Position numbers and translations under genes: made by a program | Part shown: positions 3,923-34,823 of the stretch, piece by piece | Layout: each line of letters opens with the position of its first letter | Position numbering within the stretch: the stretch's first letter is position 1 | The notes under the pieces: model-generated | Seen by the model: the letters and a program-made list of their open reading frames with translations, nothing else | Database searches by the model: none | Told to the model about the DNA's origin: nothing | From: Moniliella sp. 'wahieum' | Taxonomy: Eukaryota | Direction of reading: 5' to 3' | Assembly: GCA_003971905.1 (NCBI GenBank) | Contig: RSEE01000033.1 | Coordinates: 620,001-657,682, forward strand | DNA length: 37,682 nucleotides

Positions 3923-4508
3923 GTGCATTTTCGACGCTATTGCTCACAAGGAATTCTTGGATGTTTCATGTGGACTAGGACATGCCTGTAGATCGATCGC
4001 ATTGAGCCCTTTGAGTGGAAACATGAGATCATGAGAGCTGATGAGGATCGGACCTCTACAATGCGGTTGTCCACCCCCGGATGTCAGAACATCACTTGAT
4101 CGCAGTGTACATCTGACTTTCTTTGGAGCTAATTGCCGATTGTTAAGCGCGTACGTTAAGCGTTGATTGTTGAGGAGGCCCGTGAAGCTTGAAGGTAGAG
4201 ACTGCTTCCACGTGACGCGTGATGCAAGAAGTGTCCATTCTTATTCTCAGGCGCTACTTGTGAATGCCCGTCTCAGTCCCTGCTTTGTCTGTCTCGGCGG
4301 ATGATATCTTCTTTTGCTACCACCTCTTTCTCCTCTTATTCTCTTTGGGCTCGACTTGACAACACTTGTGAACCAATATCTGCCGGGTGAATCGTTTTTC
4401 TCAGCGGCTAAGTGACAGAAACTCAAGTGCTATGCTATGCCCCTTGTTTCGTTTCAAAAGAAACCACACCATAATAGACTCTCTTTCATGCACCTGGCCG
4501 AGCAGGTT

Positions 4509-4516
4509 AAAAAAAA
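4509..4516 (-). terminator. Pol III oligo-T terminator of tRNA-Gly
   Basis: T8 on the minus strand one base past the tRNA discriminator. Confidence 0.8.
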
Positions 4517-4517
4517 G

Positions 4518-4614
4518 TGCGGCCGCCGGGAATCGAACCCGAACCTTCAGCTGCCCCCTGTCAGATTGTAAACCAACTTGGAAGGCTAAAATTCTACCTT
4601 TAAACTACAGCCGC
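4518..4614 (-). tRNA. tRNA-Gly(UCC) with a 26-nt intron
   Basis: Minus strand: acceptor GCGGCTG/CGGCCGC-A, D arm GTTT-AAAGGTA-GAAT, anticodon arm TTAGC-CT-TCC-A..A-GCTGA with the intron at 37/38 (4553-4578), T arm TCGGG-TTCGATT-CCCGG. Confidence 0.93.
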
Positions 4615-4875
4615 TGTTGTTTGCAAGCGGCATAATACTATAGATGTGGAAGCTATCCTGTAGCCACCTTCTTTAGCGCCCAGAGTGATCACCTTAACTT
4701 CATAACCCCACCCACCCATCTAGCAAGACTGACACCAAGACTGACACTGCTAGCCAGTAATATGTTCCCCTTGACTAGCATTACAGCGCGACTGCAAATC
4801 CACACAGAAGACAGCCCAGCTATCACTTGCCAGAGATTGCGGATGATATGCATGACAATTGATGCTCCTACTACG

Positions 4876-7085
4876 CTACTCGGATTTGGACACGCCCTGC
4901 TCCTCTGTCCCAGTCGTACGGAATGACGCCATGTTGGGCGTCTGGAATAGATCCGAGTCCTCCGGATCGGGTGTGACTCCAGTATGCGCGTGCACTAGTG
5001 CTGCCTCACTCTCCTCATTCAACAGGGAGGAAGGCAAATCTCCTACTGGCGCCGTCGCCATTGGCGCATCCAGCTGGCTCTCCTCTTCCACTTGCGTTTC
5101 CGACAGAGCCACTTCGGGGGCCTGGGCTGCTGCCGGCGAGACAGCAGTACGTTCCAAAGCACTGTCCCCAGGGGAGAGGTTGAATGTGCCGTCCCTTGAT
5201 GCCCGGACACAGTGGTGGAGGTGAATACCGCTTGGTTGGCATCTGAAGTTGGTATAGCTGAAGGATGGGGCGGGACACCAGTCCTTTCTCCCTCAGAACG
5301 AGCTTCCTCGTCGGGTCGTACTGCGTGGGGTTCAGCATGGCCCGGAACACCATGTTGATTCGGTTGGGAAAGAGGGGCCGGAGAATGCTCATCCTCTGCC
5401 ACTGCCCCTCGTTCTTGAGGCGAGTCACTAGGTGAAGTATTGGCGCCTATAGGCAACGAAGGAGAGGTTTGCTTCGGCGGGAGAGACAAACAAGGGTCGG
5501 CTGGCGGATCAGATTCCACGCCAAGTTCCACTGATTGCTCCAGTTTGGCTGTAGGGGAAATGTTTGGTCCCGCCACCTCCCCCATGGAAGCCACCGTTTT
5601 GGGGGAGCGGGGCTCCCGGGCAGAAAGTGCATCCTGGGTTCCAGGTGAACCACCCGTAACGCCAGGATCTTGGTGGGGAAGGTCTGTGGTGGCGGGGGCT
5701 TGATCGTCAAGAGTTGGTTCACGATGAGGGTCGGCAAAGTCCTTCTTCCCAAGGTCACCATCCAGGACGGGGTCGCCTTGGTTCACAGGACCTGGGTTGA
5801 CTCCAGTGGATTGGTCAAGCAGCTTCTGCCCAGGCGCTGGAGGTGCACCTTGCAAGACAGACGTAGCCTTGGTGCTGCTGATGGGTTGGATGGGTGCCTC
5901 CTCTGGCTCGCCATTGCTGGGGTCGGTGGTGCTTGCTCGTTTCCTGCGAGGCTCACGGACGATCTCGATTTGCTCAGAGGCAGCGCGAGGTTGGCTTCCC
6001 TCCCTGCTCAGTCGGGGCCTCTTGGTTTGCGGCTCGAGAGTTGATTCAGACTGTACCACGTCTTGTACTGGTGCCAGACCTGTACCAAAGGGAATAAGGT
6101 GGGGATGCACCTCAGCCTTGGTGGGCCTGTGAGGTGATCGGTGGTCGCCACGTGAATGAAGGAACCAGCGGCGCAGTTTTCGGTCGTTGGATAGGATGGG
6201 GGGAGGTGCTTCTCCTTCTGTGATGCGGTCCAGGTCTGCTAACCCCTCGCGCTCAATCACCTCCAGCTGCATATCTCGAGTTGGGTTTCCCCTCCACTGT
6301 TCCCCATACATCGGCCCCACATCCAACATTACCTCCCTGATCGTGACAGGATGAAGGGGCAACTGGCCTGGACGGGCATCGCCGCCCCTCATACGCGCAC
6401 GGATGGCTTCGAGCCAAGAAGGGGGGCGGAGGAAGGGGCCAACCCAAGCTCTGGTCTCCAGACGGGCGCATCGATTGGGTGTACCCATGATGGAAGAGAT
6501 GGATGCAGGCGCTGGCGGGCATTGTTGACGGCGTGGCATAGGGACTCCGAGGTGTCGCTCACGACTCGGCGGTGGTCTATGAATACTGCGTTCGAGGTCA
6601 GGAGGGGGCCGTACGAGAAAGGGGATATAACCTACTTGAGTCAGAAACAGAGAGAAGGCTGTGTGCGGTATATTCCCACTCACTCCCGCGCTGATCGGCT
6701 GAGGCATGAGAGGGAATGCAGTCGTCTGGAACGGCGCCCATGTCGTTGAGGAGCGGGCCTAGGTGCGACAGCGTCGTGCCCCAAATGTCGTTGGGCGCAT
6801 CCTCGTCGCCAAACGGGGGGGGGTGGAAAGCCCATGTTGGGTGCGCTGGAGGCGGTGCAGAGCGTTGGGAAGGGCACCGCTTTGGCCCAGCAGTTCCAGC
6901 GCGGAGAAGAACTGCTGTGCGTGAGACGAGACGCGGTCGGGGTCGACGGCCGGGGAGAGCGTGGAAGGTGGCGGGGATGCGGGCGGGGAGAAGCGAGCGA
7001 GGCGGTGGCTGAGGTGGTCGATGTAGGGGACCAGATCCCTGTCCGCCAGCGAAGGAAGGAGCGCGAGCGGGACGGACTCGCTCAT
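4876..7085 (-). CDS. Hypothetical protein with a helical N-terminus and a long Pro/Ser/acidic disordered C-terminus
   Basis: Overlapping minus-strand ORFs 6759..7274 (from MSESVPLALL at 7085), 5043..6707 (554 aa) and 4876..5157 join through frameshifts into one ~730-aa reading. No family recognised; ends are approximate. Confidence 0.6.
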
Positions 7086-7480
7086 CGCACCGGCGGTGGC
7101 GGGCAGACCAGCAGTGGCGGCGGCAGACCCGATCATGCCGAAGCCCAACGCGGCCGGGCGAGGGGGGCTGAGGCTGAGGTCAGCCGGTCCCTGGCCGGCG
7201 ACGCGTGACATGTGACACGTAACCGCGTAAGCGCGTAAGCGGAACGCGTAACTCCTGCTCACTCTGAGCGTCATCGATCCGATCGATCATCGACGGACAG
7301 GACAGGCAAGGGACCGCCTGCATGAATGAACATTTCAGTTCTCGCTGATGCGCATGCCGTTCGCGCGTTCACGCAGCGTCACGTGATGGTTGCTCGCCCG
7401 CCACAGCGGTCGGCCGCTCCAAACACTTCCTGCGTCGCCGCCTGGCTTGTCCGCCCATCCCACCACCCACCGCCCCCGCC

Positions 7481-10195
7481 ATGGACGAGGACGCCTACCT
7501 CAGCGACGGGTTCGACCCGCGCAGCGTCACCATCCCCCGCCTCCGCTCCATCCTCCTCCGCCACGGCCACGCGTTCCCCTCCTCCGTCCGCAAGGCCCAG
7601 CTGGTCCAGGCCTTCGACACTCACGTCGTCCCCCGGCGCCCTGCGCTGCGCGCCCAGGCCCTGCGCGCCGCCCGCATCCAGACACGCCCGAGCGAGGTCA
7701 GAGACATGCGCACCGACCCAGGCGTGCAGACGGTGTCCGCCTCGCCCCGGGCATCGCTTACTGCCTCAGCCTCAGCCCCTGCCCCGCCGCCCGCCCGCAG
7801 CTCACCCCGCCGCTCTCTCAGCTCTGACTCTGGCACCCCCCCGCTCTTCCCCTGCCCTCGCCCCCATCGCCTCCACCCCAGCTGGAAAGGGCCGAAAGCG
7901 GCAGCAAGCGAGCATGCGCCAATCTCCCGGCCCCAAGCTCCAGAACGCTGTGCTTTCTCCCGCCCATACCCAAGAGGACACCGCCAAACCTCGCAGAAGC
8001 AACCTTCGTGACCACAGGGAAGAGAGAGCCCCGTAAGCTTAAGGGACGCGCCTCAGTCACGTTCAATGATAAGGTCGAGTACTATGACGAGGATGCAGAC
8101 AAGAGCAACTTTTCCCATTACAATCCCTTCCAGAACCCTTCTCCCAACCAATCCCACGAGTCCATCAGCGCGGTACGTCCCCCCCCCGCCCCCCTTCGAT
8201 CCTTCCATTTCTGAGTAGAAGTGACACTGACAGACTCGAAAAAGGTTTCCCCAAACCCGAAGGGCAAGATTCAACCCAAGAGAAGAAGAGGACGAGCTTG
8301 CAGACCAGAGTAGCAGTTTTGCCAGCTCTGTTCGTAACGTTCTTCCCACCACTTTGCTTTCACCCCTGGCTGGGTGAGCCAGATTCAAGCTCGGCTCGCC
8401 GGGAAGAAACAACCACTTTCGATTCATCGGATACATCTGAGGATGAGTATGAGGATGAGGATGAGGATGAGGATGAGGATGAGGATGAGGATGAGGATGA
8501 GGATGAGGATGAGGACGAGGACGAGGATGAAAATGATGACGATGATGATGAGTCCGAGGAGGACGATGCCCCGCACTTGGAGGATGACGGCGAGGAAGAT
8601 GCTGTGCAAGATGGACAAGAATGGGCTGTTTCGGATCTGTCCTCATATTCAACCAGTTTCGACCGCTCTTTTGATCCCACAACTGACCTAGCCCCTCGAT
8701 GCACGCGTGGCGCGCGCGGCAACAAAAACAACCGACCCCTCGACCCATCGGACGGGTGACCAAATGGGTGGCCTACTTTGTTCATATCCTCACTGTGCTG
8801 TTGTTCTGTTCGGTGGCGGCCTACGTGTCGATTGTGTACTTCGTTCGAGCCCGGGAGTCCCGCGCGATCGGGTACTGTGATACCGCTACCGACTCGAACC
8901 GAGAGCTGGCCCGACGGCGGTTGATCCCTCACAATACGGACTTGCAGGACCCGTGCCTGCTTGACCTTGTTCCCCCTCTTGGCTACCCAACTCGTGCACC
9001 CCCTGCCCGGCGTATGGGGAATGCCGCCATGGCACGTTCCTCGGATGCTCTACGGCCGACTATCTCCGTTCTGAGTCCATGTGGTGGTCCCTTCCGCCTG
9101 TGTTGCGGACCTTCCTTCCCTCGACTTGCTGGCGCCTAGCTGTGTCCCCGACACCCACAAGCTACTCCTCGCCCTCGAGGTGGCGGGAGAGGTGGAAAAT
9201 GTCCTTGCCACTTGGAATGGGGGGTCAAGTGTGGATTATCCCCGCCGTTTGACACTGCAGCCGGAGGCAAACTCTCCGGGGCGGATCGCACGGATGCCGG
9301 GGCGCTACCCACATCGCAACTTCAGGAGGACCTGTGGGACCGCACCGAGAGTCGGCTGGACCAAGACTACTTCATCAGCTCTGGGACTTGGGGCTGACCG
9401 AGTTGAGACGAACGGGTGCGATCCAGACGGTTCCTGGCTCGAGCGAGGGCCCTATGGTGAGATGATCTATACCCCCCGGGCCATCATGCCATTCAAGTGC
9501 CGCACCCGTTTAGCGGTACGGGCGTTCCTGCGTCGCTTCCGTTTACTGGGCGGGGCAGTCCTCCTGCTGGTTCTTTCGGTCTTGTGGCTGAGGCATCGCT
9601 TGGCCTCTACTGCCCAGACGCGGGCCAAAGTGCGCCGGCTGGTGCGCGTCGCACTGGACCGCCTTATCGATGCCGCAAGACAACACATGCTCAACCCTAG
9701 CCTGCATCCGCACGCGCACTCGCTCGCACCACTCAACTCCGTGACGAGGTGCTGATGCATGAGCATAGTGTCGGTCAGCGTAAGCGGCTCTGGGCCAAGG
9801 TGGCCCGCATTGTCGAGGAGAACACCAATGTGCGTACAAGACAGGCCAAGTTGGCTGGCGATTGGGTCAAGGGCGTGGGAATGGATCGGAACGGTGCCCA
9901 GTGCGCTTCCCATCGAGTCGCCCGCCGCCAGCCTGGGACCCGACCCGGACGTCACGGGCGCGTCCTTGGCTCCGAGGTTTTCTTCACGACCAGACCGGAC
10001 CGGACTTTCGGGTTGAGGCCAGTCATCCTTCATTCCGACCCGGACCGTACTGGTATGTCGGCCATTGAGACCAGTCGCTTCCTTCAGACCGATGACGCCG
10101 ACCGGACAGGCGTGTCAGCGATCGAGGCCAGTCGCTTCCTCCAGCCCGTGGGACAGGGAGATGTTTCGCTTCTACTCCTTACTGTTAATCTGTGA
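7481..10195 (+). CDS. SRC1: Inner nuclear membrane HeH/LEM-domain protein of the Src1/Heh1/Man1 family
   Basis: N-terminal HeH motif YLSDGFDPRSVTIPRLRSILLRHG...RKAQLVQAF; intron 8173-8233; acidic tract; TM1 then IGYCD and a Cys-rich lumenal domain; TM2; C-terminal Man1-Src1 motif RKRLWAKVARIVEENTNVRTR...WEWIG. Several indels; true stop is 10016 or, more likely, 10195. Confidence 0.88.
8439..8528 (+). repeat. (GAGGAT)n hexamer microsatellite encoding a poly-ED tract in SRC1
   Basis: Ten perfect GAGGAT units (8451-8510) flanked by GAGTAT/GAGGAC variants, in frame as EDEDED. Confidence 0.95.
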
Positions 10196-10301
10196 TCTGA
10201 ATTCTGCGTTTCTAGGATCTCGCAGCGTTGAACGAAAGTGTACATAAAGGGTATCACGCGGTGGGGAGGAGGGGAAGAGGGTAGGGTAGGCAGGGCAGGG
10301 G

Positions 10302-14262: not shown

Positions 14263-14338
14263 GTGCCTCGCCTTTTGTTGGCACACCTCTCCACACCACA
14301 TAGCTTTTCTTTTCTCTCGTCCAACCCGCTGCCAAACT

Positions 14339-17530: not shown

Positions 17531-19404
17531 CTAGTAGTTGTCCGGAGTAACAGAGGGCTCGGGCGTCTTGTCGCCAAGCGACGATTCAGCCGTATTGTCC
17601 TCCATGAGTTTCTCCTCTCCAATCTTCTCCATATCTTGGGCAGTGACCAAGGTGGAAATTTCACCCTGGACCAGAGCACGACGAGAAGTGAAGCCAGGAG
17701 GGCACCATGTACGGCTGTTCCAGGCCTTGCAGCTGGGATCGTGGTACATCAGGTCGACTTGCTCCAGGGTGAGGCCTTGGGTTTCCCGGACAAAGAAGAA
17801 AACAAGAAGAGCATTGACAATGTTCCAAGCGGCAAAGATGAAACCGTAGGCTGTAAGAGAATGGTGTTAGTGGGTTGAACATACGGCCAAGAGGGGCGAC
17901 GATAGACATACCATAGCCAATGTTGCCTGTAATAGGTTGGGTGAAGAACGCCAGAGCGAAGTTCCATGCCCAGTTGGTGGCCGTCGATAGGGCAGCTTGC
18001 TTTGCACGAGTACGCGAGCCAAAGTTTTCACCGCACCATACCCATACTGCAGGAGACCAAGTGCAAGCAAGGCAGAAGACAAAGAAGCAACCGGCAACGG
18101 TCATCAGATCGCCAACGCCCTTGGAGAGGTGGGGTTGACCCATGATGCCGCTCTCGTTACCAGCGACACCGGCAATAGCAAAGACAAAGAGCCATAGGGA
18201 GCATCCCAGCGCACCGTAGAATAGAGTGTTGCGGCGACCCCACGCTTCCACCATCCAGAGACCAGGGGCAGTGCAGACAAAGTTAACGGCACCAAGGATA
18301 ATTTGGGTGACATATGAGTCCTTAAGACCGGCGTTGGCAAACACCTGATTGCCGTAAAAGAAGAAGTCTGGGAGAAGAATCAGTCAGCACGAGAACGATG
18401 CGGAATAGGATCGATATCAACGTACAGTTACCGCCGCAAAGTTGCTGTCCCATCTGAAGTGCCATGCCCCATGTCCGGAAGCAGGTTGAGTTCTCGAATT
18501 TGAAGCAGTCAGCCCACGTGGCCTCGGAAGCGTTGCTAGCCTTTTCCTCCTCAATGGACTGAATCAAGTCATTGTACTCGGACTCAACTGAGGATCGTGG
18601 GCGTCAACGGATACACCATGCATCACAGCAATTGCCTTTTTGGCCTCGTCGTACCGGCCCTTTTGCGCGCTAATGGTGGGCGACTCGGGCGTCAACATCG
18701 CAACAGCACCCTGGAGCATGGCAAAAACAAAGCCGATGGCGGCCAAAACCCGCCACGATGCCGAATCATTGTTGCCTGCGTAACGGGTACCAATGGCAAT
18801 GGCGTAAGCCAATAGAATACCAAGGGTGGCAAACTGGAAAAAGCCGCCCATCATGCCGCGGATTTGCCGGGGCATCAGCTCCGATTGGTACACGGGAGCA
18901 AGGGCAGAGGACATGCCAATGCCATAACCAGAAACCAAGCGGCCAATGCCGAATTGAACCCAAGAGTTGACCGAAGCAACCTTGATGATGCAGCCAATGA
19001 TGATCCAGAGCGCAGAGATTTGGACACTGTGCTTGGTCCCCAGTCGGTTTTGCCAAATGTTGCCAGTAAGACGCCGACGCCGCATCCAATGGACATGAAA
19101 CCAGTGATCAGGCCCTGAAGCCAAGGCGACCAAGCCTTTTGGTACTTGCCATCGGTATACGTGACGCGCCCGTGGCAAAGCGACGCTGGAAGTCTTCCAT
19201 GGGGTACATACCGGCCATAATACCGGTTTCATACCCGAACTGTTCTCATCGACACACACGTGAATCATATCAGTGCGATGTTCTTGTTTGGCGCTAATGC
19301 GGTAGAAGAAAAGGAAGAAAAATGCGTACGTTAAGACCCGCGCCAATGGTCACCAGTGTGACCAGGTGGACCATGATGCCGACGGAAGTGCCTCCGAGTT
19401 TCAT
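17531..19404 (-). CDS. MFS sugar porter (hexose transporter family)
   Basis: FGYETG, GRLVSGYGIG, YQSELMPRQIRG, SWR, PESP, QQLCGGNYFFFYG, VEAWGRRNTL, NWAWNF and PETQGLTLEQVD. Introns 19240-19329, 18368-18425 and 17851-17911. Confidence 0.93.
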
Positions 19405-20381: not shown

Positions 20382-20422
20382 AGTGACTATCACTCGTCAC
20401 TAATCACTAGTCACTAGTCACT
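20382..20422. repeat. Tandem heptamer array AGTCACT with an inverted copy
   Basis: AGTGACT (20382-88), then CGTCACT AATCACT AGTCACT AGTCACT (20395-20422). Confidence 0.85.
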
Positions 20423-21206: not shown

Positions 21207-22782
21207 CGTCAAGCCTTTGGATTCGTTCCTCGCATGGAGACAGTATCGATCGGTGGCACCTTGTTCGGATGTCTCTGTTGCACCGCCGGCGGATTTGAAC
21301 CTTGTGGCTTGCGACCGGCAACAGCCGGCGACCTTTGAGGCCGTGTTCACCGGTCACCAGTCACCGGTCACGCGGTCACGATAGGTATCGCACTATAGCA
21401 TACGCTGCCGTTCTACTGTCCCAGCAGGCCCCCGACAGCGTGCAAACATCATTAGCTCACAGTGGATACGGAGCTGGCACATATTGCACGAGTTGCGCGC
21501 TCGACGCCTGGGCCAAATCTCTCCAACGCACAACGTCCAACGTCCAACCCTCTCTCTCTCACCGACCTCACCCATACTCAAGATGAGGAGATGGCCCAAG
21601 CGCGGATTGGGCCACCATTGCTCTAGTCCGGGGGAGGTGGGGGGCGAACCGGAGCGAGAACACTACTGTTCCTTGCGCCATCCCGTCGAAAGATAAGGCC
21701 TAAGGGGTGAAATTTGAAGGGTGAAAAGGAAGCTTCCTACCCTGATGAGGCCTGAACCATATACTGACCCCCCCCCCCCCGCATTCTGTTGTGCCTATAC
21801 GGGCCGGGCCTGCCGGGCCACACGCCATTTCGTTTCCTGGCACCCATCATCGATCATCGGATGTGTACTTAGCCTACCTGCCCCGCTTTCCTCTGCACCC
21901 TGTCTCGGCTCCGCCCACCCACAGGAAAGGAAATCCAAGCAATCGTTCCATTTCCCAACACACTACCGCGCCTTCTTCCTCCCCAGTAACCAAATCACCG
22001 TGTCTGTGTCATGGGCGGGCCCCAGCCTGTGGGGGCCCGCTCTGAGGGGATTTCATGTTACAGGTGCAATCTCGAGAACGGAAGCGACATGTCTGTGCCT
22101 GGGCTTGTCGGTGGGTCCGAGCGGGAGGTTATAGTTTGGACGAGTGTCAGGCGAATTGAATATTGACCGGTGACCGGTGACCCTCTAAGAGTCCAGTCTT
22201 CTTGAAGCTTAGCGCTTACTAGAGCTCCGCGCTCCCAAACCCAACTAAGTATTATTTTGTTACGAGCGTGTGGAGCGGTTAAACTAGTATGTCTGGTGGT
22301 CCGTGGAGACACACTCGCTTCTTGCCGGTGTGGAAGGCGGAGGGAATGAGAGTGAGGTGGTTGTTCCATAGTCAAGAAAGGGGAATCTCAACAGAGGAGA
22401 AAGACACCAAAGGGAGAGTCAGAAAACATGGCCTGATTGGAAATGTTGGGGCATGCCGCAATCACGCCAACAGCAGAGCTGATTCCTACTATTTTCTGTT
22501 GTTACTCACACTAACGTTTCGTCCCCGGTGTTGGGTACGCAGCGCGGTAAGTGTTGAGTCTCCCCCCTCCCACCTCCGCCTTTTTCCCTGTCCTCAAGTA
22601 TGAACGGATCCAAACGTGTTTTACGACAGTGCCCCGCGTTCGGTGTCTACGCAGCCTTGCCTCTCATGAAAGCCACTCCTGCTATGCGCCTGATTGAAGG
22701 CATCTCCTTTTTGTATTTACTAGAGGACAACCGGGCCTACGGCCCGGTCAGCTTGGTGCTTGGTGCTTGGTCGCCACCTTAG

Positions 22783-23568
22783 CCACCGTTCCCCGTCGCC
22801 ACCTTAGCACAGCAACCTGCTGAGCTACATTGGCTCTCCACCATTCCATCCGCCCCGTGCCTCCGGCTCTCTGACAAGCAGATTCAGGTTGGTCTCCAGC
22901 TCCGCACGTTGTGCCGCTCCACGCGCAGCATGTGCAAGTGCGGCATGTCCTCGCTGGAGCACATCCTGACTGGCATCCGCACCCAGGCCAAGTTTGGTAC
23001 GTTGCATGAGGCAGTGCGGGAGCCCATTCTCCAACTCGTGCGCTCCATCCCTGGCACCCACATCCACAACGAACCTACTGTGGAGGAAGAGGATGGGACG
23101 AGGCGCGGGCGGAAGGCACAGGGCAGCGACTACCGTGTGATGGGGCCTGGAGCAATCGGAGGATCAGGAATGGAGGTGTACCACATGCTGCGCGACACGG
23201 AAACGCAGGAGGCGCAGAGCGCGTACCGGAGAGTGGTGCATGAGCACCGCGCCGCCTTTGTAACGCCGGGAGAAGGAGCTGCTTCGGCTGCTGGAACAAG
23301 CAGAGTGCGACAAGAACGCTAAGTACCCGGGACGCACTCAAGAGCCGTTTCGCCCCCTGGTTTTGACGACGCGAGGATACTACGGCACCAAGAGAGCGGG
23401 CAAGATGTTGCGCATTGGAAGGATTGGGCTACTGACTCTCAATGGAAATGGTTCCTCGCTCGGATGTCTACCATGTTCATCCATGTCCACAAGCGCTACC
23501 TTGGGTACGGGACCGGATGGCGAGCACCTGAGGGTCCCGATATCTTGGCGATCCCCCTGGTTCCTTAA
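22783..23568 (+). mobile_element. 5'-truncated, degenerate non-LTR retrotransposon fragment (C-terminal Zn-knuckle plus restriction-like endonuclease, CRE/Cnl1-like)
   Basis: HWLSTIPSAPCLRLSDKQIQVGLQLRTLC...MCKCG..LEHIL...LHEAV...NEP...GSDYRV; after a frameshift EQAECDKNAKY...FRPLVLTTRGYYG; then WFLARMSTMFI. This is the motif order of RLE-clade ORFs (WL..P, CCHC, RH, EP..R.D, K..KY, F.PLV..T.G). No RT domain in the window. Confidence 0.72.
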
Positions 23569-24698: not shown

Positions 24699-27120
24699 CT
24701 AGGAAGAAAATAGTAGACGACAGCGTAGAAGAGGGATGGGGGTGGGGATAGGGGTGGGGGTGGCGGGGAAATCAGAGAGGTAAACGTGGGTGCCCAATAC
24801 CTGACTCATCGGTATGCACAGTGACCCTCCTGGTCCGGCGGGGCCGGGCGTGCACTGGGACCCGGGCCCCAGAAGGTTGGTGGGTAGCATAGGTGAGGTC
24901 GGACGAGAAGCGCGTATACTTTCCTGGACGACCAGACTGACCCGGCTGGCCTGGCAGGCCAGAATAGAGGGATAGGCCTGGCCGAGCTGAAGGGGCGGGC
25001 GAACCAGAAAGGGTGGAAGGGGCATAGGACGCAGCAAAGCGAGAACGATCAGTATAGCCAGGCGATCCCAAAGAACGGGAATGTCCAAGGCGGCCAGAGG
25101 GCCCGGCTGAGTAGGGCTTCGGGAAATAGTTGAAGGACTACCAGGCTGCCCAGAAAGACCGTGCTGGTCAGGATGAGGGCCTGGATAATAACTAGATGAG
25201 CCGTATTGCCCAGAGGCGCCACGACCAGGATCCATATAAACAGAAGGCACAGACATGCGAGAAGACCCGGAAGAACGACTTGAAAGACCAGGCGGAGGAG
25301 GGCCTGGATAGCGAGAAGGACCAGGAGAAGAATCAGTATACGTAGAAGATCCCGAAAAGGCCGCGCGACCAAGAGTAGCAGGAGCAGGAAGGGGTGAAGG
25401 TCCTGGGAAATGGTCAGCGGTGCGAGGAAGACCAGAAACGTGGCGGAAGAGAGACTTGAGGGGTAATTTGCTGGAAGGCCAGAAGGGTGGCCAGAGATGG
25501 GATCAAGGAGGGGGGCAGAGTGCAGGCCAGAGCGGTGGCCAGAGATGAGGGGGGCAGGGGAAACGGGCCTAGTGTAAAAACCCAACGGGTCAGGCAAGGC
25601 AGAACCTGGAAGAGGTGACGTGCCTCGTGTGTGAGGCTCGCGGTTCCACCACATAGATGGTACACCAGGCTCGCCGTCCCACCGCGCGGGCGTCGCCGTT
25701 TGGGTCTGGGCGGGCGAAATCTCTTCAGGATGGTACGTTGGCGGCTTGGCTCGAGTATCGTGGTACCGCCGTTCCCATTCCCCGTCCACTAGGCCTTCAG
25801 ATCCAGGGAGCGGCTGGGCGTATCCATGGTCGCGTACGTCTTCTGGACCAGGCGCCACAACGGCTCTCATCTTTGACGGTGGGGTGGAGAGGCGTCATCA
25901 AGGAGTGCAGACGGTAGGGTGCGTGCCTGTGGTGCAAGGGGGTGCACAGCTCCCTCCATCCGAGGTACCTCGGGAGCAGCGACCTGAGCGACAGGGGAGT
26001 GATGTCCTTCGCGAGGAATGTAAATGATCCATGGCTCATATCCACCCCGTGCCATACGAGGGTCAAGAAACGTGTTCCCTGGCGGAGGTGGGGTGCGGGC
26101 CGAGGAGACGGAGGGGGAGTGCACGAGGTCGGTCTTGCCTATCGTCTAGCATATCTTGAGCAGAACGTTTACGGCGGGAACCCGAATTGTTGCGGATGCG
26201 AATCTTAAGCCCTTGGTCGGCAAAGGCGCGGGAGAGGGCGGAGGATTCAGTCATGCCCGGGAAGCGTTTGGGTGCATAGACGTGGAAATGGTTGGAGTAC
26301 TGGGAGGCGCAAAAGTAGACATGACTGCCAACCGTCTCATAGAGAACAAACTTGAGGCGGTACCAGCCTTCGACGCGGACTGAGAGGTCGGGGAAAACAA
26401 AAAGGCCTGATTCCTCCCATCCAAGTCTTTGAGACGGTGCAAACCCGACACACAGCTTCCGGTTGTGAATCTTCGATGGCCATCAGGGATGAGGTGCAGC
26501 TCCCGATTTTCGTTTGAAGCCGCGAGCATGGCATAGAGAAAGTAGCAGGGATTGTCCATGTACCACGTCCGGTCTTCCCAACCGAACCCCAGTGGCGTCT
26601 GACAGCGCTGCCCGCGAGAGATGAGGGCACCTACATCCAACGGTGTTGGGTGGTTCCGTGCGTATTCCGGTACCACTGCAGAGGCAACGTTGGTAACGGG
26701 CTGGGGATGGGCAATCACTCGCAGCTGCACGATGGGAGCGGGGTCGAGCGGACGGCGCTCATATCTCTCGCCCACACCACACATGCGCGATTGCAGTGGC
26801 TGCTCGCGGATGATTAGCTGGTATTCCAGTTGGTCGCGGCCAGTGACGATCTGGGGTACTGCCGCAAATGTGTAACTACTCTGGGTTGTGCTGGAGCGAC
26901 AAGTAAGAGCAGGTGCGCACATAGAAGAGCCAGAGCCACCCGCATCGCGGTCGCGATCACCATCTTCAGCTCCAGGTCCAGGTTCAGCTCCAAGTCCGGG
27001 TCCAACGCCAACTCCAAGCCCAGGTTCAGCGGCAAGAAGATGACCAAGACCCGGACCAGGCCCCATGCCAGCGCCAGGTCCAATCCCAGCTTTGCCCGAT
27101 CGACGGTGGTGCCGGGTCAT
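24699..27120 (-). CDS. Velvet-domain transcription factor, VosA-like
   Basis: YQLIIREQPLQSRMCGVG..ERRPLDPAPIVQL...TGSCVSGLHRLKDLDG...FVFPDLSVRVEGWYRLKF...YAPKRFPGMTESSALSRAFADQGLKIRIR, then a long Pro/Ser/Gly-rich tail over several frames. Gly/Pro repeat at the N-terminus; 3' end approximate. Confidence 0.92.
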
Positions 27121-27833
27121 GATGGCGGGGGCGGGGAGAATGGCAGGCTAGCGTGTACAGTGCTCCCTACAACACAGGCACGAACCTCGGAAGAAGAAGC
27201 AGGTGCAGTGGTCAAGGTGAGGAGGGTTGGAGTAGGGCTGGACAGGGGGGAAGGGGAAGGGAAGGCCAGGCCAAACCCAGGATGGAGGTCACGGCAGAGG
27301 GCAAGGCAGGAGGGCGGATGGGCAGCTGGGAAAGAAGACGCCGGGGTACGCCACCCGAGGTTACTGCCGAGAGGGGAGCGCTGATGCGGCCAGTGGGCCG
27401 GTGCCGTGTGCAGAGGTGTCTCGATCTCTGCCTGCGCGTTTGTACCGGGCGGCCAGCGTCACGATTACGCCGGAGGAATACGAGGGATGGGGCGGGGGCA
27501 CACGGACGTAGCTGCTAATACGACCTGCACGGCGGCCCAGAGTGCAGAAGAGAAACGTCTTCCGGTTGGAAAGAGGTACCGGTGGCGGTGGAAGAAGAAG
27601 AAAGAGGCAGGCAACGAGCGGTGGCCGAGATCCTGGCGAGGCAGGTTATGCTCCCGACATCCGCTCGGGCATAGTCGCCGGCCTCATTCATGCATGTGGC
27701 CTCATCAGCATCACCAAGCCCTGTCGGCATTCCCTCTGGTGTATGTGGTCCTTCTCGTGAGACACCCATACGTACCCACCTCGGCTGGGCACGCTGCCCC
27801 AGTAGGCCGGGGGCCTTGTTCTGGTACTATAGC

Positions 27834-27882
27834 CTTCAAGCTAAGCTTCAGGCTTCAAGCTTCAAGAGCTTCAAGCTTCAAG
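27834..27882. repeat. Tandem heptamer array CTTCAAG
   Basis: CTTCAAG CTAAG CTTCAGG CTTCAAG CTTCAAG AG CTTCAAG CTTCAAG. Confidence 0.9.
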
Positions 27883-28332
27883 CATGCTGGCTTTCTGGCG
27901 TTACTAGGTACATACACTGTGCGAGTCGTACACTATCCTGCCTGCTATTTGCCCTTTGCACGTCTGGGCCGCCCTTGCGGCAGATGGCAGGTAGTGGCTT
28001 GTCGCCGGTGCCTGACCCCACGGTCTAGCCCTCTGCCTCGCACAGCGTGCAGCCCGTATGCTGGTGGATGATTTGGAAGACGGGCGGGATAGTCGTGGGC
28101 AGGCTGGGGTGGCAGCAGGATGGCTCAAGCGCCCATCACATTCATCCACCCATGCACGCTAGCCATACGTAGCGCCATGAAATGAATGATGGGGTGGGCG
28201 TTGGACATGGTCCTGCACCCTGCCTCATCACTCGTCTCTATGGTTGAACACGGTGAACGCGTCCTGAGAGATCCTGGTGCTCTCCTAGATCCTAGGGCCT
28301 AGCTTGCCGGAATCCCCACATCACAGGGCCCC

Positions 28333-28560
28333 TGTCACATGTCACATCACATGCCACATGTCACACCTTTGCCTCGCCGGAGGGTCCCTCACATTGTCAC
28401 CCGCCACGCTGGCAAGTGACGCGTGATGTGTGACGAGTGCCGGCTTTGGTGTCACATGTGACCGGTGACATGTGACAGTGAAGCTGAAGCGGAAGGGTGA
28501 ACATGTGACGTGAGCATGTGAAGGGTGATACGGGACGTGCGATCGGTGATCTGTGACCGG
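28333..28560. repeat. Cluster of TGTCACA/TGTGACA/GGTGACC-type heptamers
   Basis: TGTCACA TGTCACA..TGCCACA TGTCACA (28333-65); TGTCACA TGTGACC GGTGACA TGTGACA (28450-77); further copies up to ~28560. Confidence 0.85.
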
Positions 28561-30017
28561 GACCTCAGGCGGCTTGCAGTTTGCAGGTGTTCCAGGCGCC
28601 ACAGGGCCCCACTAGCTCTCTGGGCCCATCACTGACCAGGACCCACTGACCGGTGACCACACCGACTGGCAAGTGATATGGATGTGATGGGGGATGTGTG
28701 ACCTGGTGTCACGTGTCAGTCATGGACAGAAAACTTCCCCAGCACCTGAGCACCGAGTCACCAGTCACTCGCCCTAGCCACCAGCCCCTGTGACTTGCAT
28801 GTGGCTAGGGAGTCACTTGCAGTAGCTTCGCTCGTTGCGGCAGCGCGCATGCTACCCGTTATCGGTTCCGCGTTGCGCTACGCGTTACCGGGTTGCCCAC
28901 GGGCCCCCAGGCCCTGCCCTACCAGACCTCGGCCCCCATCGACGTCGGCCATCCACCGTGCAATGTCATTTGCAATCTTTTGGCTGTTCTCATGGGTCAC
29001 CGGTCCCTACGAGTATACGATCATCGATCCTCGCTCACTGGCTCATGTATCTGAGGCCTGATGCACCTGAGGCCTGATACCTGATGGCTCCACAGTTCGC
29101 TCAGCCGCGCAGCACTCAGGCTGAGCTCAGCGCGCTCGCGCTCAGCGCTCATTAATCATTGTAGCCACTGCTCACTATATATAGCCAGTAGCTTCAAGCT
29201 CACTAGCTTCACTAGCTTCGCGGGGGACGGAGTCGTGAGTACGTGAACGTGTGACATGTGAACTGCATGTGAACACTGAGCCAGCCACCGGACCCCTATA
29301 GCCAGCCAACCCCTGGCCATTTCCCCGGTCCCGTTCCCGAGAGACCAGTGGCTGCGGGTATATGTGAATTGCGCTTTGTGTGCATTACACGCAATATGCA
29401 AAACGGCAGAGGTGACGGCAGTACAACCGCGACACCAAGATCCACATGCAACACTAGAAAACGTCTTGTCATCACTCGTCGATCAGTGTACATTAGTACA
29501 TCAGTCCATCAGCGCATCATCAGAAATGCACTGGTCCAATTTCCAACCAGTGTGCTGGGGTAATAGTATCCTCTGGTGCTGGCACACCCGCTGTATGCGG
29601 GCGTGATAGGGCCCAGAGCGGAGGACGAAAGGGACTGTGCGTGACATGGAATCCATACATATGGCGAGAGGCAATCTTGGCGAAGGAACCATGACACTAT
29701 ACACGCGTACCAGCCCCTCTCCACAGCTATAGGGATCGCGATGAGAATCGCCGACATCAGGCCAGTAGGAAAAAAACAAACTGTTTTGCTCCACACACAC
29801 CCGGCACAATCCGTCGAGAGCCGGTGAGCGGTGAGGGTGTAGGTTGAAGCTTTTACAGAGAGGCTATGCAAGCATAAGTGCACATGAGCATCGGTGCAGA
29901 AAGGTCAATATCTGAGCTCAGCGCTAGCAGGGAACGTTGGTGGTTGACGTTGGAGACGTTTAACTTAACTTTTAACGTTTAACGGGTTTTAACGTTGGGT
30001 TATAACCGCTGTGTTCT

Positions 30018-30053
30018 AGTGACTGCCAGTCACTAGTCACTAGTCACTAGTCA
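30018..30053. repeat. Tandem heptamer array AGTCACT with an inverted copy
   Basis: AGTGACT GCC (AGTCACT)x3 AGTCA. Confidence 0.9.
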
Positions 30054-31435
30054 TCTCCCCCCACACATACAGACCCACACCCCCGTTGGCACGAAGCATC
30101 CTTACGCGTTACGACCAGCCAGTAGGGTCTCATTGCATGAACCGCGCAGACGCAATAACCCGCCACAGTCGAGTTTTACGTCTCTGTCCTGTTGACCCTC
30201 CGGGGTCCGTAGAGAGGGTCACTATCGCCTCTTAAAGCTTAAACCATAATGCTGTTTTGGTCCCCTTTCTCTAAATGGCTGCGGGGATGTTAGACCGGGC
30301 TTTGGACCACATGCTGCCAGGAGTCACCACGGTTAACTCCTTCGCCTTTCTTTTCTCTTCTGGGCGTAGTCCCACATTCTGTCATTATTGAACCATATCA
30401 CCGCATTCATATCTTCTGTCCGAAGGAAAAAAGGACTCGCTGAGATATCTGGGCCAAAATTAATATGTCCAACATGCCGAGGTTTTGGGTAATGGAGTTA
30501 GAACTGTCCATGCTTCAAAGGCTGTGCTAATATAGAACGGATTTTTGGACGACGAGAGGGGCACCAGCGCTCTCAGTCTGAACGCCCAGCCTCAAAGAAC
30601 AGGGGAAACCCACACCCTCTCTCGGACAAGAAGACGACGCATGAGAAATTGCAGTAAACCCATGTGGATTGCAATTCTTTTAGACCCACGCAGGATCGGA
30701 GGGATAAACTAAGAGAGAGAGATGAAGATGAAGAAGGAAGCAAGGGGGTGCACAGCTTATGAGCGGAGAACGCTTCCACCCCCAACTCAGAAAGCGTCTC
30801 CAAAATTGTGGCGTCTGCGTATTTGAGTGAATCATGTTGGTGTCTAATACGGAGGAAACCTTAGATAAAATGCCATACACACCTATTACGGCATGCGCCC
30901 TTGGATGTAAGACCCGCATAGAACAGTTTGCGCTCTTGTCTCTTTGAAGCTAATGCGTCTCTCCTCAGATCTCAGACCTCAGGCCCTCTCGCAGGCCTTG
31001 CTGACCTCACCATCGAAGATCCCTTCCCCCAGAAAAAGATACTGCTGCGGGCCTCACGGATGGGTCAGACGGTGGCTGTGAGCGCTGACTCTCGTGGTGT
31101 GTGGATCAGAACTGATCTTGGCTTCCCAGCTGCGTGCCAAAAGTATACCGATATACCGACAGTGGGGGAGAGACGAGCGGTTGAGAGAATCCAGAGAGAC
31201 TATGATAAGAAAAGATGAGTACAACAGAAGCAGGATGAGATCTGAGATCTACAAGGAGAGGAATGGAACGATAGACCAGTGGAAGGAGAACTGGAATGGT
31301 GACGTTAGTGTGAATTTAGATGTGGCTGTGGCCCTCCGAGAGACCTGAGATCTGACCCGTGGTCGCGCGGTCAACAGTAAAGTAGTGTGGCGTATACAAA
31401 AGGTATATAGACGGGGGGTGGCGTCGCCGGAAAAG

Positions 31436-31671
31436 TGTGAAAATATAACGTTTGCCGTAACGCACGCCTTCTGTGGTTTTGTGCTTGGTGCGGCAGTGTC
31501 TGAGCCTGAGCATCGAGCACAGAGTACAGAGTCTCTTCTTTAATATAGCCCCTCCCCTCTGAGAGGAGCTGAGCGCTGAGCGTCTGAACTCCACAACGTG
31601 GGTGTGAGTGAAGTGGGTCCAAAGTGTGTGGGTTATTAGGTTCCGCCATTAAATCGACCCTATATTCCACA
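31436..31671 (-). mobile_element. Possible solo LTR
   Basis: Minus strand TGTGGAATATA...GGCTATATTAAAG...TATATTTTCACA: TG..CA ends with imperfect inverted termini and an internal TATA box. No target-site duplication. Confidence 0.3.
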
Positions 31672-32169
31672 ACGTCATTCTGTCTCGCCGGATACCACCG
31701 TTTCGGAACCGGCATGTGCACGCCAAGAGAGACCTCACCCACAAAGCAATGCTTTCTTCAAGTTGAAATCCCAAGTATATATTGTTCCCCTCCATTATTT
31801 GTATGCCGCAGGAACCGGTAATCAACAGTTTCCAACAAAACGTGTAATCTCCCAACCCCAAGCGATGACATTTGACCGGTCGACGAGTTTCGTGATGGGC
31901 GCGACGTTCAACGTACGCCGTTCAGCGCTATAATGTTAAACGCACGTTAACGAGCGTGTAACGTAACGTGTAACCCCTACTACGTATAGTTTGGCACAGA
32001 CAGAGTAACCCCGGGTGTATCGCGGTTTATCTCCTTTCAAATTTCACGAGAGATGAACGTTGCCAGTGGATGTGCTCAACAGGCAGTGTTAAATGAAGAA
32101 CGGTATAAAACACTCAGCTAGATAGTAGGCGATCCCCGTCGAGGCTCATAGGCAGGCATAATAACACTA

Positions 32170-32385
32170 CCGACCCCATTTTGATAGTGTACACGTCATC
32201 GATATCCACCGTGGCCTTGATGTCGCTGATGTCAGAAACCTTATTTATTCTGACATCCAGGATGTCAGCGCCATCTCGGCTCCCCCTTGCTATCCCTCGG
32301 GTCAAGGACGCGAGTGAGGTCAAATCTGTTATCGGCGACCACAAGGACATCAGTGCCATCAGTCTTCAAGCTTCAATGTTCAAGC
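32170..32385. repeat. Degenerate 9-bp-periodic GAYRTC tract
   Basis: Recurrent GATGTC/GACATC/GATATC, often 9 bp apart; reads ...DGADILDVR...SDISDIKATVDIDDV on the minus strand. Confidence 0.5.
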
Positions 32386-32540
32386 AAAAGGCAATGGTCC
32401 CTGGATCTGCTTATGCAACCTCGATGGTGGCCGGTCAGAGGGGCAGGCACCCTCGCATCGTATCTTTGGGCGAGGCGATGGCCCCGTGTTCCGCCGCTGT
32501 TCCGCCTGTTAGACTGTGATCCTGCAGCTGTTCTTATCCC

Positions 32541-32612
32541 GGCTCGATAGCTTAGTGGTAACGCATCCCTGGCCAATAGGCGATGACATGGGTTCGAATC
32601 CCATTCAAGCCT
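32541..32612 (+). pseudogene. Degenerate tRNA-like sequence (pseudo-tRNA or SINE head), nominal anticodon CCA
   Basis: GGCTCGA-TA-GCTT-AGTGGTA-ACGC-A-TCCCT-GGCCAAT-AGGCG-ATGAC-ATGGG-TTCGAAT-CCCAT-TCAAGCC-T. Canonical spacing, intact A and B boxes and a perfect T arm, but mismatches in the acceptor, D and anticodon stems and G instead of U33. TTTT follows at 32616-32619. Confidence 0.7.
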
Positions 32613-33127
32613 CTCTTTTCCTCACTGTTTCCCCCGGGTTGTGCCCTCCCACACCGCCTCCTTGGACGTGTTTGCCACGTATTCGCTGCTTCGCCACAGT
32701 TGACCAACGATGGGCCAGACATTTGTGCTCCATGCATCACACCACTACTTTTCTTTGCATCTCGTCCAAGTAAGCGATCTGTGGGCGACCGTGACGCGTG
32801 ACGAGACCTGGAGTCCAGATGGTCCTCGAGGGTGATGCAATCGCACTGGTGGTGGTGGTCTAAGCCAACCAGCAACGCCTACAGAGGAACATCAAGCAGT
32901 GAGTCGTCACCAGGGGCTAAGCTGCGGAACCAGGAAAAAACAGGAGAGAAAACAACGGAACTCCCAGGCCTGAGGAGAAACTGAAGGGGCATTGGCCAAA
33001 GCACGAGCCACCTGATGGCTCAAGACCGCTATGCGCCTCACTAGGAGACCACCGGGCCCACTGTTGCCACGTGGCTGGCTAGGTCTTCTGCAGTTAGCTT
33101 ACCTACTCAAAAGCTTTTGTTTCTTCT

Positions 33128-33277
33128 TGTAGCAACGCCTGTATTTGCCTTGCCTCCACCTGTATCCCGCTCCCGCTTATATACTCGATACTCCTCCTCT
33201 CTCTCTCCGCTGTATTCGCTGTCTGCATCGTAGAGACTGTTGTGTCTCGCTTGTTCTGGCATACTTGCGTCGCTACA
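33128..33277 (-). mobile_element. Solo LTR-like element (150 bp)
   Basis: Minus strand begins TGTAGCGACGC and ends GCGTTGCTACA (11-bp inverted termini, 1 mismatch, TG..CA), with internal TATATAAG and AATACA near the 3' end. No PBS, PPT or TSD seen. Confidence 0.6.
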
Positions 33278-33485
33278 CCACGGCCCGGTTTGCTGAGGCT
33301 TCGCCCCAGCCTGTTGGGCTGGGTCACCGTCGCCACCGTAGCCACCGTTCCCCCTAGAGATACGCGCTGGCTGGGTGGACTGGAACGTGGCACACATCAG
33401 CTGATGTAAAAGTGTACAGGGGCGTTTCCCATTTCCCGTTTTTTCACCCGGCCTCACGTAGTTCGAAGAGTACCAGAGTACTGGT

Positions 33486-33611
33486 AGAGCTAGTGAAGCT
33501 TGAAGCTTGAAGAGCTAGTGAAGCTTGAAGCTTGAAGAGCTAGTGAAGCTTGAAGCTTGAAGAGCTAGTGAAGCTTGAAGCTTGAAGAGCTAGTGAAGCG
33601 AAGCTTGAAGA
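33486..33611. repeat. 25-bp minisatellite (AGAGCTAGTGAAGCTTGAAGCTTGA) x ~5
   Basis: Four perfect units 33486-33585 plus a fifth with a 2-bp deletion. No spacers. Confidence 0.97.
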
Positions 33612-33940
33612 GATTATCGATTGGCATGAGATCCGAGATCGCAGTAGGTGATCAGTCGATGGATCCGCAAGCAGCAGGGCTGTACTGGTGCTGAGTGTAA
33701 GGTGAATCCCACGGCATCACAATATGGTGGGCGTGAGTAAAAAGGTCTCATCGATCATCGGCCTGAGCAAAGGAGCAACTCAAATAACGCAGGAGGCCCA
33801 GATCGCGTACCGGAAGGTGGTACATGAGAGCACTGCGACGCCTTTAAAGCTCTGACAATGATAGGGATGCAGTATAGAGATAACTCCACTCCTCTCAGTG
33901 GCATGGTTCGGCGTAATCGTAATTTGATGTCCTCGACCAA

Positions 33941-34823
33941 AGTTGCAGCACGGTGCTGAGCCACCATAATCGCCAAGTGGCGCCCCACAGTATGGTAAGG
34001 CGTAGCGCAAAAGCGCGAAACCTTCCTGGTTATTCCTTCCAATATTCCTTCTTAGGGGGCAGGAGTATTCTTTAGCCTCTGTATTTTCTTGACTCTTGAT
34101 ACGAGGCGCTGCGGTGTCTCCCGATGCAGAGCCCCTCATGTCATAGGCATCTCTTACTAGCACGTCTTCAGTCTCTACATAGGCTAGCAAGAGAGAGCTT
34201 ATCTATCCATGCAGCTGGCATCCTTCGCAGCCCGCTCAATATATGGGCGCATGAGTACGATGCTTTGTTCCCATTACGCCCACAGTCTTGGCAGAACCCT
34301 TTGTCTGCTGCGGCCCACCGGACCGCGGACTTGACAGAACAGACTGCGCTTTATGCCTTACTATTGTAGCTCTCTCTTGCTAGGCTATGTAGAGACTGAG
34401 TACTGACGACGTGTTTGGAAGAGATGCCTACGAAATGCGGGGTTCTGCGTCATGAGATACCGCAGCTCCCCGTACATCTCTGTAGCTCATGCGCTCATGT
34501 GCAAAATTATGCAACAATACACGTCAACTGACTGCTCTCTGGTCTTTCACATCATTACTCAGCCCACCGGACACGGTGCCGTGCGCTAGTATGTCCGTCG
34601 AAGCGGAGGGTGCACTACACAGTGCAAACTTGCGCTATCTATATATAACAGTTGGAGCACGGTTCCATGTGGCGTTATACTAGGCCAAGTGCCAGTCGCC
34701 AAGTGGCGCCACAGTAGGGTAAAGGCGCAGGCTAAGGGACCCTTCCTTATCATTCCTTCCAACATTCCTTCCTGGAGGGCAGGAGTATATTCTCTAGCCT
34801 CTACTGTAGCTCTCATGTGCAAA
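33941..34823. repeat. Diverged direct duplication (33941-34083 plus 34478-34505 versus 34650-34823)
   Basis: Shared AGTTG(C/G)AGCACGGT, TCGCCAAGTGGCGCC, ATTCCTTCCAA(T/C)ATTCCTTC, GGGCAGGAGTAT, TAGCCTCT and CTGTAGCTC..CATGTGCAAA in the same order. Confidence 0.85.
34084..34477. mobile_element. Foldback / MITE-like insertion with ~100-bp inverted arms
   Basis: Arms 34101-34199 and 34368-34473 are inverted copies; the inner 32 bp differ at one base. Flanked by the direct repeat CTCTGTA (34077-83, 34478-84) and absent from the second copy of the surrounding duplication. Confidence 0.6.

Follow-up and report, generated by a model that had tools for sequence, protein, structure and literature searches.

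What kind of process writes many short repeats of different sequence to one and the same geometry? The question is raised by a stretch of 37,682 nucleotides (nt) from Moniliella sp. 'wahieum' (contig RSEE01000033.1 of assembly GCA_003971905.1, positions 620,001 to 657,682), nuclear fungal DNA with a G+C content of 55.5%, which we call the window. The original prediction was that 7-bp odd palindromes of the form xyTNAy'x', whose outer dinucleotides are complementary, are arrayed throughout its intergenic DNA and record a system of cutting, hairpin formation and repair. The motif positions that it listed are all present in the sequence, although the repeat at 20909 has the unit GTGGAAC, GTTGAAC being found in its flank. 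Our evidence base is this one 37.7-kb window of a single assembly, and within it the arrays follow a rule from which the palindromes result: a 7-bp increment of constant form, in which 5 nt are copied directly and 2 nt inversely with zero loop, and a strong though not absolute preference for T-N-A at one end.

Heptamer arrays and the D-P-D rule

The arrays are concentrated in two stretches of the window:

R1, 19400-22780: 3.4 kb without long open reading frames (ORFs) or Pfam matches, with 11 exact period-7 arrays
R2, 27400-34500: 7.1 kb without long ORFs or Pfam matches, with 15 exact period-7 arrays

Measured against 100 dinucleotide shuffles of the whole window, exact period-7 tandem repeats of at least two copies number 27, where the shuffles hold 2.04 (standard deviation 1.54). 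Of these, 26 lie in R1 and R2 (0.60 expected) and 1 in the remaining 27.2 kb (1.39 expected). The predicted confinement of tandem arrays to non-coding DNA is thus nearly complete, while the predicted window-wide spread gives way to a concentration in R1 and R2, with three further sites (4183, 4211 and 7206). Neighbouring periods are weaker there: the excess over shuffles is +7.8 at period 5, +9.0 at period 6 (11 vs 2.0), +25.4 at period 7 and +3.8 at period 8 (4 vs 0.18), and none of periods 5, 6, 8 and 9 has a peak comparable to that at period 7. The lag-7 autocorrelation peak is likewise confined to R1 (0.310) and R2 (0.302), as compared with about 0.26, the rest of the window showing period 3. 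Neither a smooth fall of abundance with unit length nor an unconstrained unit sequence, as in ordinary microsatellites, is found.

The units are also palindromic far too often. A rotation to an odd palindrome exists for 18 of the 27 period-7 units, where chance gives 10.8% (binomial 7e-12). Neighbouring arrays and one higher-order repeat share copies, so that the array counts are not wholly independent; once copies within one higher-order repeat or array are collapsed, 14 of 23 units are palindromic. No such excess appears at other periods (12/52 vs 27.6% at period 5, 1/34 at period 6, 0/6 at period 8). In every palindromic unit positions 3 and 5 are T and A, and in all but one the centre is C or G. 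Counted singly, xyTNAy'x' occurs 33 times in R1 vs 11.2 expected (z 6.8) and 70 times in R2 vs 24.9 (z 9.9), and it is not enriched outside them (68 vs 83.9). The centres ANT, CNG and GNC are unenriched (A-N-T 7 vs 11.8 and 17 vs 25.4), so that the proposed comparison with other centres and periods singles out T-N-A and period 7. The heptamer pattern predicted for this DNA is real and far above chance.

What, then, is constant from array to array? Segmenting the arrays at their TCA or TGA cores leaves three constant features: the core, the 7-nt spacing and a palindromic 4-nt spacer. Among 80 pairs of neighbouring cores at this spacing, 71 have the same orientation and 9 the opposite one. Orientations had been thought to be mixed within arrays; instead, arrays of opposite orientation adjoin without interleaving. 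The 4-nt spacer is palindromic in 52 of the 80 pairs (5 expected), and 14 of the 16 possible 4-bp palindromes are used. Even among same-orientation pairs with a lag-7 identity below 7, a palindromic spacer is kept in 24 of 43 (2.7 expected), and in five places a single core stands between two different palindromic spacers, the unit itself being non-palindromic. Duplication followed by point mutation would hardly suffice to give a core two such unlike neighbours.

We therefore write the structure as D-P-D, 5'-TSAab-b'a'-TSAab with S standing for C or G, and the arrays as D(PD)k. P is the exact reverse complement of the adjoining 2 nt of D, with zero loop. Array lengths agree with this form: among 41 exact arrays in R1 and R2, eleven are 12 bp long, seven 19 bp and one 26 bp, that is 5+7k, although four of the seven 19-bp arrays sit within one higher-order repeat. 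Eight more are of 10-11 bp, five of 13 bp and one of 17 bp, with none at 16, 18 or 20-25 bp; arrays of 14-15 bp are taken up below. The boundaries agree as well, in that 15 of 42 arrays begin at T-S-A and stop 2 nt past a core, or do the mirror image of this, while symmetric 7-mer boundaries are seen in 2 of 42 (binomial 1e-4 for the asymmetric excess, against a null of 2/16).

Merged over strands, R1 and R2 hold 44 D-P-D loci vs 1.35 in shuffles. Those that start with T-(C/G)-A number 28, vs 0.04 expected; five others start with T-(A/T)-A, two or three with TAG, and the rest are varied, which makes 33 of the 44 with a T-N-A core. At least 20 distinct D sequences occur. In canonical orientation the position weights of D are T 67/82, C/G 66/82 and A 67/82, and the flanks carry little information. 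Structures are enriched only if D and P add up to 7 (5+2: 67 vs 1.3), other combinations being rare at T-S-A sites. The T-S-A triplet has a density of about 30 per kb outside R1 and R2, compared with 39 per kb within, and the only D-P-D loci of T-S-A type outside them are the three sites named above, all in short spacers. Separately, we note rare period-8 variants at 21095-21116 and 21365-21386 (TGAGGC GC TGAGGC and TGACCG CG TGACCG), in which 6 nt are repeated and 2 mirrored.

The elementary object is thus D-P-D, each event adding 7 bp, and the palindromes are made by the event rather than chosen as targets. Since b'a'TSAab is palindromic for any a and b, this explains how many different flank pairs can share one geometry.

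Individual arrays and a site with and without the unit

The arrays and sites on which we draw are the following, with strand where one is assigned:

4183-4194: TGAAG CT TGAAG, a D-P-D in a short spacer
4211-4222: CGTGA CG CGTGA, a D-P-D in the same short spacer
7206-7217, plus: TGACA TG TGACA, within a short spacer (about 7180-7325)
20138-20156: GATCATC array, a 19-bp exact run
20404-20422: R1 array, TCACT-AG x2 plus D, 19 bp
20994-21215: R1 composite island of ACTCAGT, ACTGAAC, GCTGAGG, GCTCAGC, GTCACAT and GTCACGC units
21347-21379: R1 GGTCACC array
22155-22182: R1 chain ATTGAAT / ATTGACC / GGTGACC x2
27834-27883: CTTCAAG array, about 7 imperfect copies
28333-28365: TGTCACA array
28450-28481: chain TCA-CATG-TGA-CCGG-TGA-CATG-TGA, different palindromic spacers adjoining
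28647-28658, plus: isolated 12-mer D-P-D, TGACC GG TGACC, in unrelated flanks
29138-29160: chain GCTCAGC / GCTCATT / AATCATT, palindromic spacers GCGC and TTAA with the non-palindromic unit central
30028-30053, minus: AGTCA(CT AGTCA)x3, that is D(PD)3, 26 bp
31236-31250, plus: TGAGA TC TGAGA (followed by TCT)
31568-31582: GCTGAGC x2
32790-32803: CGTGACG x2, with the boundaries of two complete 7-mers, as few arrays have
33486-33612, plus: 25-bp x5 higher-order repeat at 98% identity, each unit embedding a 19-bp TGAAG(CT TGAAG)x2
34168-34172, plus: unoccupied site in the left arm of an inverted repeat, TCAGT present once
34395-34406, minus: occupied site in the right arm of that inverted repeat, ACTGA GT ACTGA

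The clearest view of the increment comes from the last two rows. They belong to a palindromic element of about 375 bp at 34100-34474, whose arms (34100-34199 and 34368-34474) are complementary at 80-97% and lie about 170-230 nt apart. The arms align over about 100 nt, and the sole indel between them is exactly 7 bp long, one arm having D-P-D where the other has D. The unoccupied site is non-palindromic around its core. Arms that differ by 7 bp, together with a non-palindromic empty site, indicate that the unit of change is a block of P plus D and that a palindrome need not pre-exist. The element has no ORF family match and no clear target duplication. Two direct copies of about 110 nt, 79% identical, flank its region (33970-34080 and 34696-34802).

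The heterogeneous chains bear on growth in two directions. In three of the four, exactly one non-palindromic unit lies between two kinds of palindromic spacer, and a single central unit of this sort is what growth both ways from one original site predicts. We see it cleanly at 22155-22182, where the central, non-palindromic unit has the look of a founding site, and at 29138-29160, and in part at 21193-21210; the chain at 28450-28481 does not follow it and needs an extra change.

Arrays also decay gradedly, with 73-100% matches, and mutated units (GTGGAAC, GTCCAAC) have been copied again, which implies that ordinary slippage or repeated targeting lengthens arrays too. The 25-bp higher-order repeat at 33486-33612 is a later construction atop a heptamer array. 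The array at 30028-30053 has its unit in inverted form, AGTGACT, 3 nt upstream.

Two side observations concern repeats that reach beyond R1 and R2. An exact 21-nt inverted match joins 7200-7220 to 21190-21210 (GACGCGT GACATGT GACACGT) with no similarity in the flanks; it could be convergence in a small heptamer sequence space, or a copied module. A period-9 repeat of about 3 copies, CATGACCGT, at 36603-36633, can be rotated to the 9-bp odd palindrome TGACCGTCA.

Genes around the two gene-free stretches

Gene limits are our own calls from ORFs, Pfam matches and 3-base periodicity, and are approximate.

2020-4034: RNA polymerase I A49, by ORF translation match
7326-10195: HeH/Man1-Src1 protein, by ORF translation match
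17661-19349, minus: MFS sugar transporter, by ORF translation match
26251-27147, minus: Velvet-domain protein, by ORF translation match
32541-32613: tRNA-Trp, inside R2

Further ORF translations match a CCDC90-like protein, ribosomal protein S10 and a BOP1-like WD40 protein. Among named proteins, the A49 ORF comes closest to one of Tilletiaria anomala (51% identity), which suggests that the fungus belongs to the Ustilaginomycotina. When metagenomes were scanned with the BOP1-like WD40 exon, nine loci turned up at 25-32% identity, too distant to be of use. The window contains two tRNA genes. At 4518-4614 (minus) there is a 97-nt Rfam tRNA match on which ARAGORN is silent, probably an intron-containing gene, and the HeH/Man1-Src1-like gene includes a long GAT/GAG hexamer repeat, an acidic tract, at 8438-8548.

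R1 is bounded by the sugar-transporter gene on one side and by an ORF at 22783-23319 (plus) on the other, and R2 lies upstream of the Velvet-domain gene. Within them, none of 28 ORF translations tested has a Pfam match, and 3-base periodicity is absent. The right edges of R1 and R2 have two blocks in common, in the same order, namely 22770-22794 with 33329-33353 (96% over 25 nt) and 23202-23259 with 33786-33845 (85% over 60 nt), with unrelated sequence between them; these may be conserved non-coding elements or exon remnants. An alignment of 22700-23420 with 33270-34010 yielded these two short common blocks only, and no usable pair of occupied and unoccupied sites.

How could such arrays arise?

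How could a site of five bases gain seven, and so uniformly? The explanation that we find best, and put forward tentatively at somewhat short of an even chance, is that the arrays are the accumulated footprint of a sequence-preferring break followed by hairpin or turn-around repair. The fixed 5-nt stagger and the zero-loop 2-nt inverted copy lead us to attribute them to a nuclease, transposase-like or other, that would be encoded elsewhere in the genome. In such an event a 5-nt site, usually starting T-(C/G)-A, would become TSAab-b'a'-TSAab. A 5-nt staggered break would supply the direct copy, and one of the broken ends would pass through a hairpin or a polymerase turn-around before rejoining; a hairpin end opened two bases from its tip, or a polymerase turning round at the template end, would supply the 2-nt zero-loop copy. 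The event could take place on either side of the T-S-A core. Its recurrence on new copies, or copy slippage, would give D(PD)k arrays, and events on both sides of an original core would leave a non-palindromic unit between palindromic daughters. The absence of arrays from coding DNA we attribute to selection against 7-bp frameshifts, though targeting to upstream DNA is equally possible as its reason. Cutting, hairpin formation and repair, as originally predicted, are partly supported by the zero-loop geometry of P, the 7-bp additions and the pair of arms with and without the unit; the symmetric 7-bp duplication at nnTNAnn that was part of the same prediction is not.

Compared with known systems, the closest chemistry would seem to be that of hairpin-forming transposases and RAG. 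The usual hairpin-opening offset of Artemis matches the 2-nt tract. Hairpin-type excision footprints and RAG joints resemble the arrays in retaining a direct duplication of fixed length at the site and in adding bases that repeat the adjoining flank in inverted form with zero loop. They differ in that P is found on either flank, whereas in the arrays the mirrored bases are one-sided, the target is asymmetric and no element is present in the window. Footprints of hAT elements, moreover, centre on the complement of the element-adjacent base, which the arrays do not. The hAT target preference, nTnnnnAn, predicts odd palindromes centred on A-N-T. Reports on the hAT, MULE and Transib hairpin-forming transposases describe the flank-derived palindromic nucleotides that they leave (PMC5873905, PMC5499845), and the 5-bp duplications reported for Transib and RAG have the length of the 5-nt repeat (PMC1131882). 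As described for one fungal system, however, hairpin-type footprints form a spectrum of deletions and P tracts (PMC5873905), whereas the arrays show one dominant outcome.

Other systems resemble the arrays in part. The canonical footprint of Tc1/mariner elements (Sleeping Beauty), TAC(A/T)GTA, is a 7-bp odd palindrome with an ambiguous centre at a vacated site. That palindrome is of constant sequence, made of element ends and a TA duplication, whereas the arms in the arrays come from the local flank and differ from site to site. Of the PIF/Harbinger group (Tourist, mPing/Pong), mPing prefers gene-upstream DNA. PIF/Pong-type elements are reported to make T-N-A duplications with a free middle base (PMC4561436), a core like that of most loci here, but theirs are 3-bp duplications with usually precise excision, while the arrays have 5 nt repeated and 2 mirrored, and C or G in most cases as the middle base. 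Among bacteria, heptamer arrays (cyanobacterial STRR, Xanthomonas and Nostoc repeats; PMC4692102) share the 7-nt period and the intergenic position; they are prokaryotic and long, each genome using a single unit sequence or a small number of them, and are not known to follow a D-P-D rule.

Several observations weigh against a break-and-repair footprint of this kind, or at least against its simplest form. Eight arrays (four of 14 bp and four of 15 bp) do not have lengths of 5+7k, and 16 of the 44 loci have no T-S-A core, which makes the preference less than absolute. Within the 5-nt duplication the target lacks symmetry, and the mirrored bases invariably lie opposite T-S-A, none being copied from the T-S-A end, a one-sidedness that a symmetric transposase dimer does not predict. 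The pair of arms at 34100-34474 cannot be polarised, gain and loss being undecidable with two copies only, and it could record a 7-bp loss. As had been anticipated, no responsible enzyme is encoded in the window, 70 ORF translations containing no transposase family and the window no nuclease gene; a scan of the window for terminal inverted repeats (TIRs) with duplications of 3, 4, 5, 7 or 8 bp stayed near chance, with nothing convincing. The outcome is also far more uniform than measured hairpin and end-joining footprints: excisions of Ac/Ds in Candida albicans were reported to leave 28 kinds among 128 (PMC5873905). Together with the unenriched A-N-T-centred palindromes, one geometry as against such variety speaks against the 7- or 8-bp duplication chemistry of hAT elements that the original prediction had invoked. 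Finally, everything comes from one 37.7-kb window, and the arrays are known from that assembly alone. In the literature that we searched, which did not cover subscription journals and Repbase reports, neither palindromic heptamer arrays nor insertions of 5+2 are described for fungi.

We also considered and set aside several particular schemes. A 3-bp T-S-A duplication with 4 bp from element ends would need 14 different terminal dinucleotides; a 4-bp palindromic duplication with a T-S-A remnant is contradicted by the chains in which different spacers flank one core; P nucleotides from the T-S-A end are not observed; and fold-back copying through the core predicts opposite orientation, while 71 of 80 neighbours have the same. 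Readings as bZIP/AP-1 sites, heat-shock elements, E-boxes or three-frame stop codons leave D-P-D unexplained.

A more specific form of break and repair would be an undescribed DNA transaction. In it, a nuclease or domesticated transposase with a PIF-like preference for T-N-A, and with the 5-nt stagger and hairpin chemistry of RAG and Transib, would repeatedly nick T-(C/G)-A in gene-upstream DNA, and stereotyped repair would leave no mobile element behind. We offer this as a conjecture, and rather an unlikely one as it stands.

Could replication produce the same structure with no enzyme devoted to it? During a template switch of short range, the strand being made would copy 2-3 nt of the opposite strand and return 5 nt upstream; the copied T could realign on the upstream T, so that T-N-A may help, and slippage would then extend the arrays, with quasi-palindromic units favouring slipped hairpins. 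The passage from D to D-P-D can be expressed exactly in the four-point template-switch model if the strand returns upstream of where it left, and switches with such a return are described as appearing as single insertions that create perfect inverted repeats beside their source, as in the arrays (PMC7954356). Arrays of 4-7 imperfect copies and re-copied mutated units fit an extension that is independent of unit sequence, and a switch needs no element, none having been found in the window. The switches described in that work are, on the other hand, of variable length and not tied to a 3-nt motif (PMC7954356), while here a fixed 2 nt are inverted and 5 nt re-copied; we know no reason why template switching or slippage should fix the 2-nt tract and the 5-nt return or give so sharp a peak at period 7. 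Complementary outer bases other than T and A would realign equally, yet they are unseen, and a zero-loop turn-around requires a free template end. Single-strand folding points both ways, some islands folding far better than shuffles (z -5.4, -4.9 and -3.3) and other array segments much like them (z -0.4 to -1.0), and hairpin potential is a by-product in some islands rather than a general property. A replication error of this sort is possible, but on the present evidence we doubt that it made the arrays.

Selection might instead maintain the arrays as cis-regulatory or structural elements, bound by dimeric factors or giving the DNA a shape of 7-bp period, in the spacers upstream of the sugar-transporter and Velvet genes. 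We judge this improbable. The arrays do lie in apparent promoter-side spacers, and the three-unit block of 21 nt recurs exactly at 7200-7220 and 21190-21210; by our estimate, however, a chance match of this length is not very unlikely, given that the sequence space is limited to a few dozen heptamers. Some units bear what we take to be a resemblance to E-box/CDEI-like (GTCACATG) or MluI-box-like (ACGCGT) motifs. With at least 20 D sequences and 14 spacer palindromes in one geometry, though, the arrays are not confined to a few site sequences. Nor has the trailing half-unit of D-P-D any obvious binding logic, and in the duplicated sequence at 34100-34474 a unit has been gained or lost in one arm. 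The arrays behave as a mutational footprint, which agrees with the earlier argument that they are not the binding sites of one factor.

Taken literally, the original prediction has nnTNAnn sites that are already palindromic cut with a 7-bp stagger, repeated insertion and excision then leaving tandem duplications. Basidiomycota do have reported transposons with 7-bp duplications, hAT7 in rusts and Kyakuja in Laccaria (PMC12730594), which share phylum and increment with the arrays; in the arrays, however, the increment is 5+2 and not 7 duplicated target bases. The four 14-bp and four 15-bp arrays fall in with such a cut, and the search for TIR elements with 7-bp nnTNAnn duplications, convincing nowhere in the window, gave one weak lead at 28763-28817: a 41-bp segment, the single one of its kind in the window, with a 10-bp terminal inverted repeat, CCCTAGCCAC, and AGTCACT on both sides, which may be chance. 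But symmetric boundaries are few (2/42) beside asymmetric ones (15/42), the length modes are 12, 19 and 26 rather than 14, 21 and 28, the unoccupied site is non-palindromic, and no target preference can require palindromy for arbitrary flank pairs. We hold a literal 7-bp cut to be highly unlikely. An artefact of assembly, amplification or base calling is barely credible: the array sequence does come from a single assembly, but graded decay, the renewed copying of mutated units, a near-complete avoidance of coding DNA that no artefact leads one to expect, and a rule unrelated to homopolymers or contig ends all speak against it.

What would follow for the organism? If the rule holds genome-wide, it gives a clean, machine-readable signature, 5 nt duplicated and 2 nt mirrored at T-N-A, which would show perfect short palindromes and heptamer microsatellites being born from non-palindromic DNA. 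It would then give direct access to a process of break and hairpin, or of template switching, in a basidiomycete, would show long upstream spacers to be the place of its action, and would point to a source of rapid promoter variation. Should the process be replication-based, it would be an unusually stereotyped template switch, useful for studying that mechanism. If, on the other hand, a nuclease or domesticated transposase is responsible, it would be writing new palindromic heptamers and fast-evolving arrays into promoters. The arrays also raise the question of whether footprints can outlive the transposon that made them, or exist without one.

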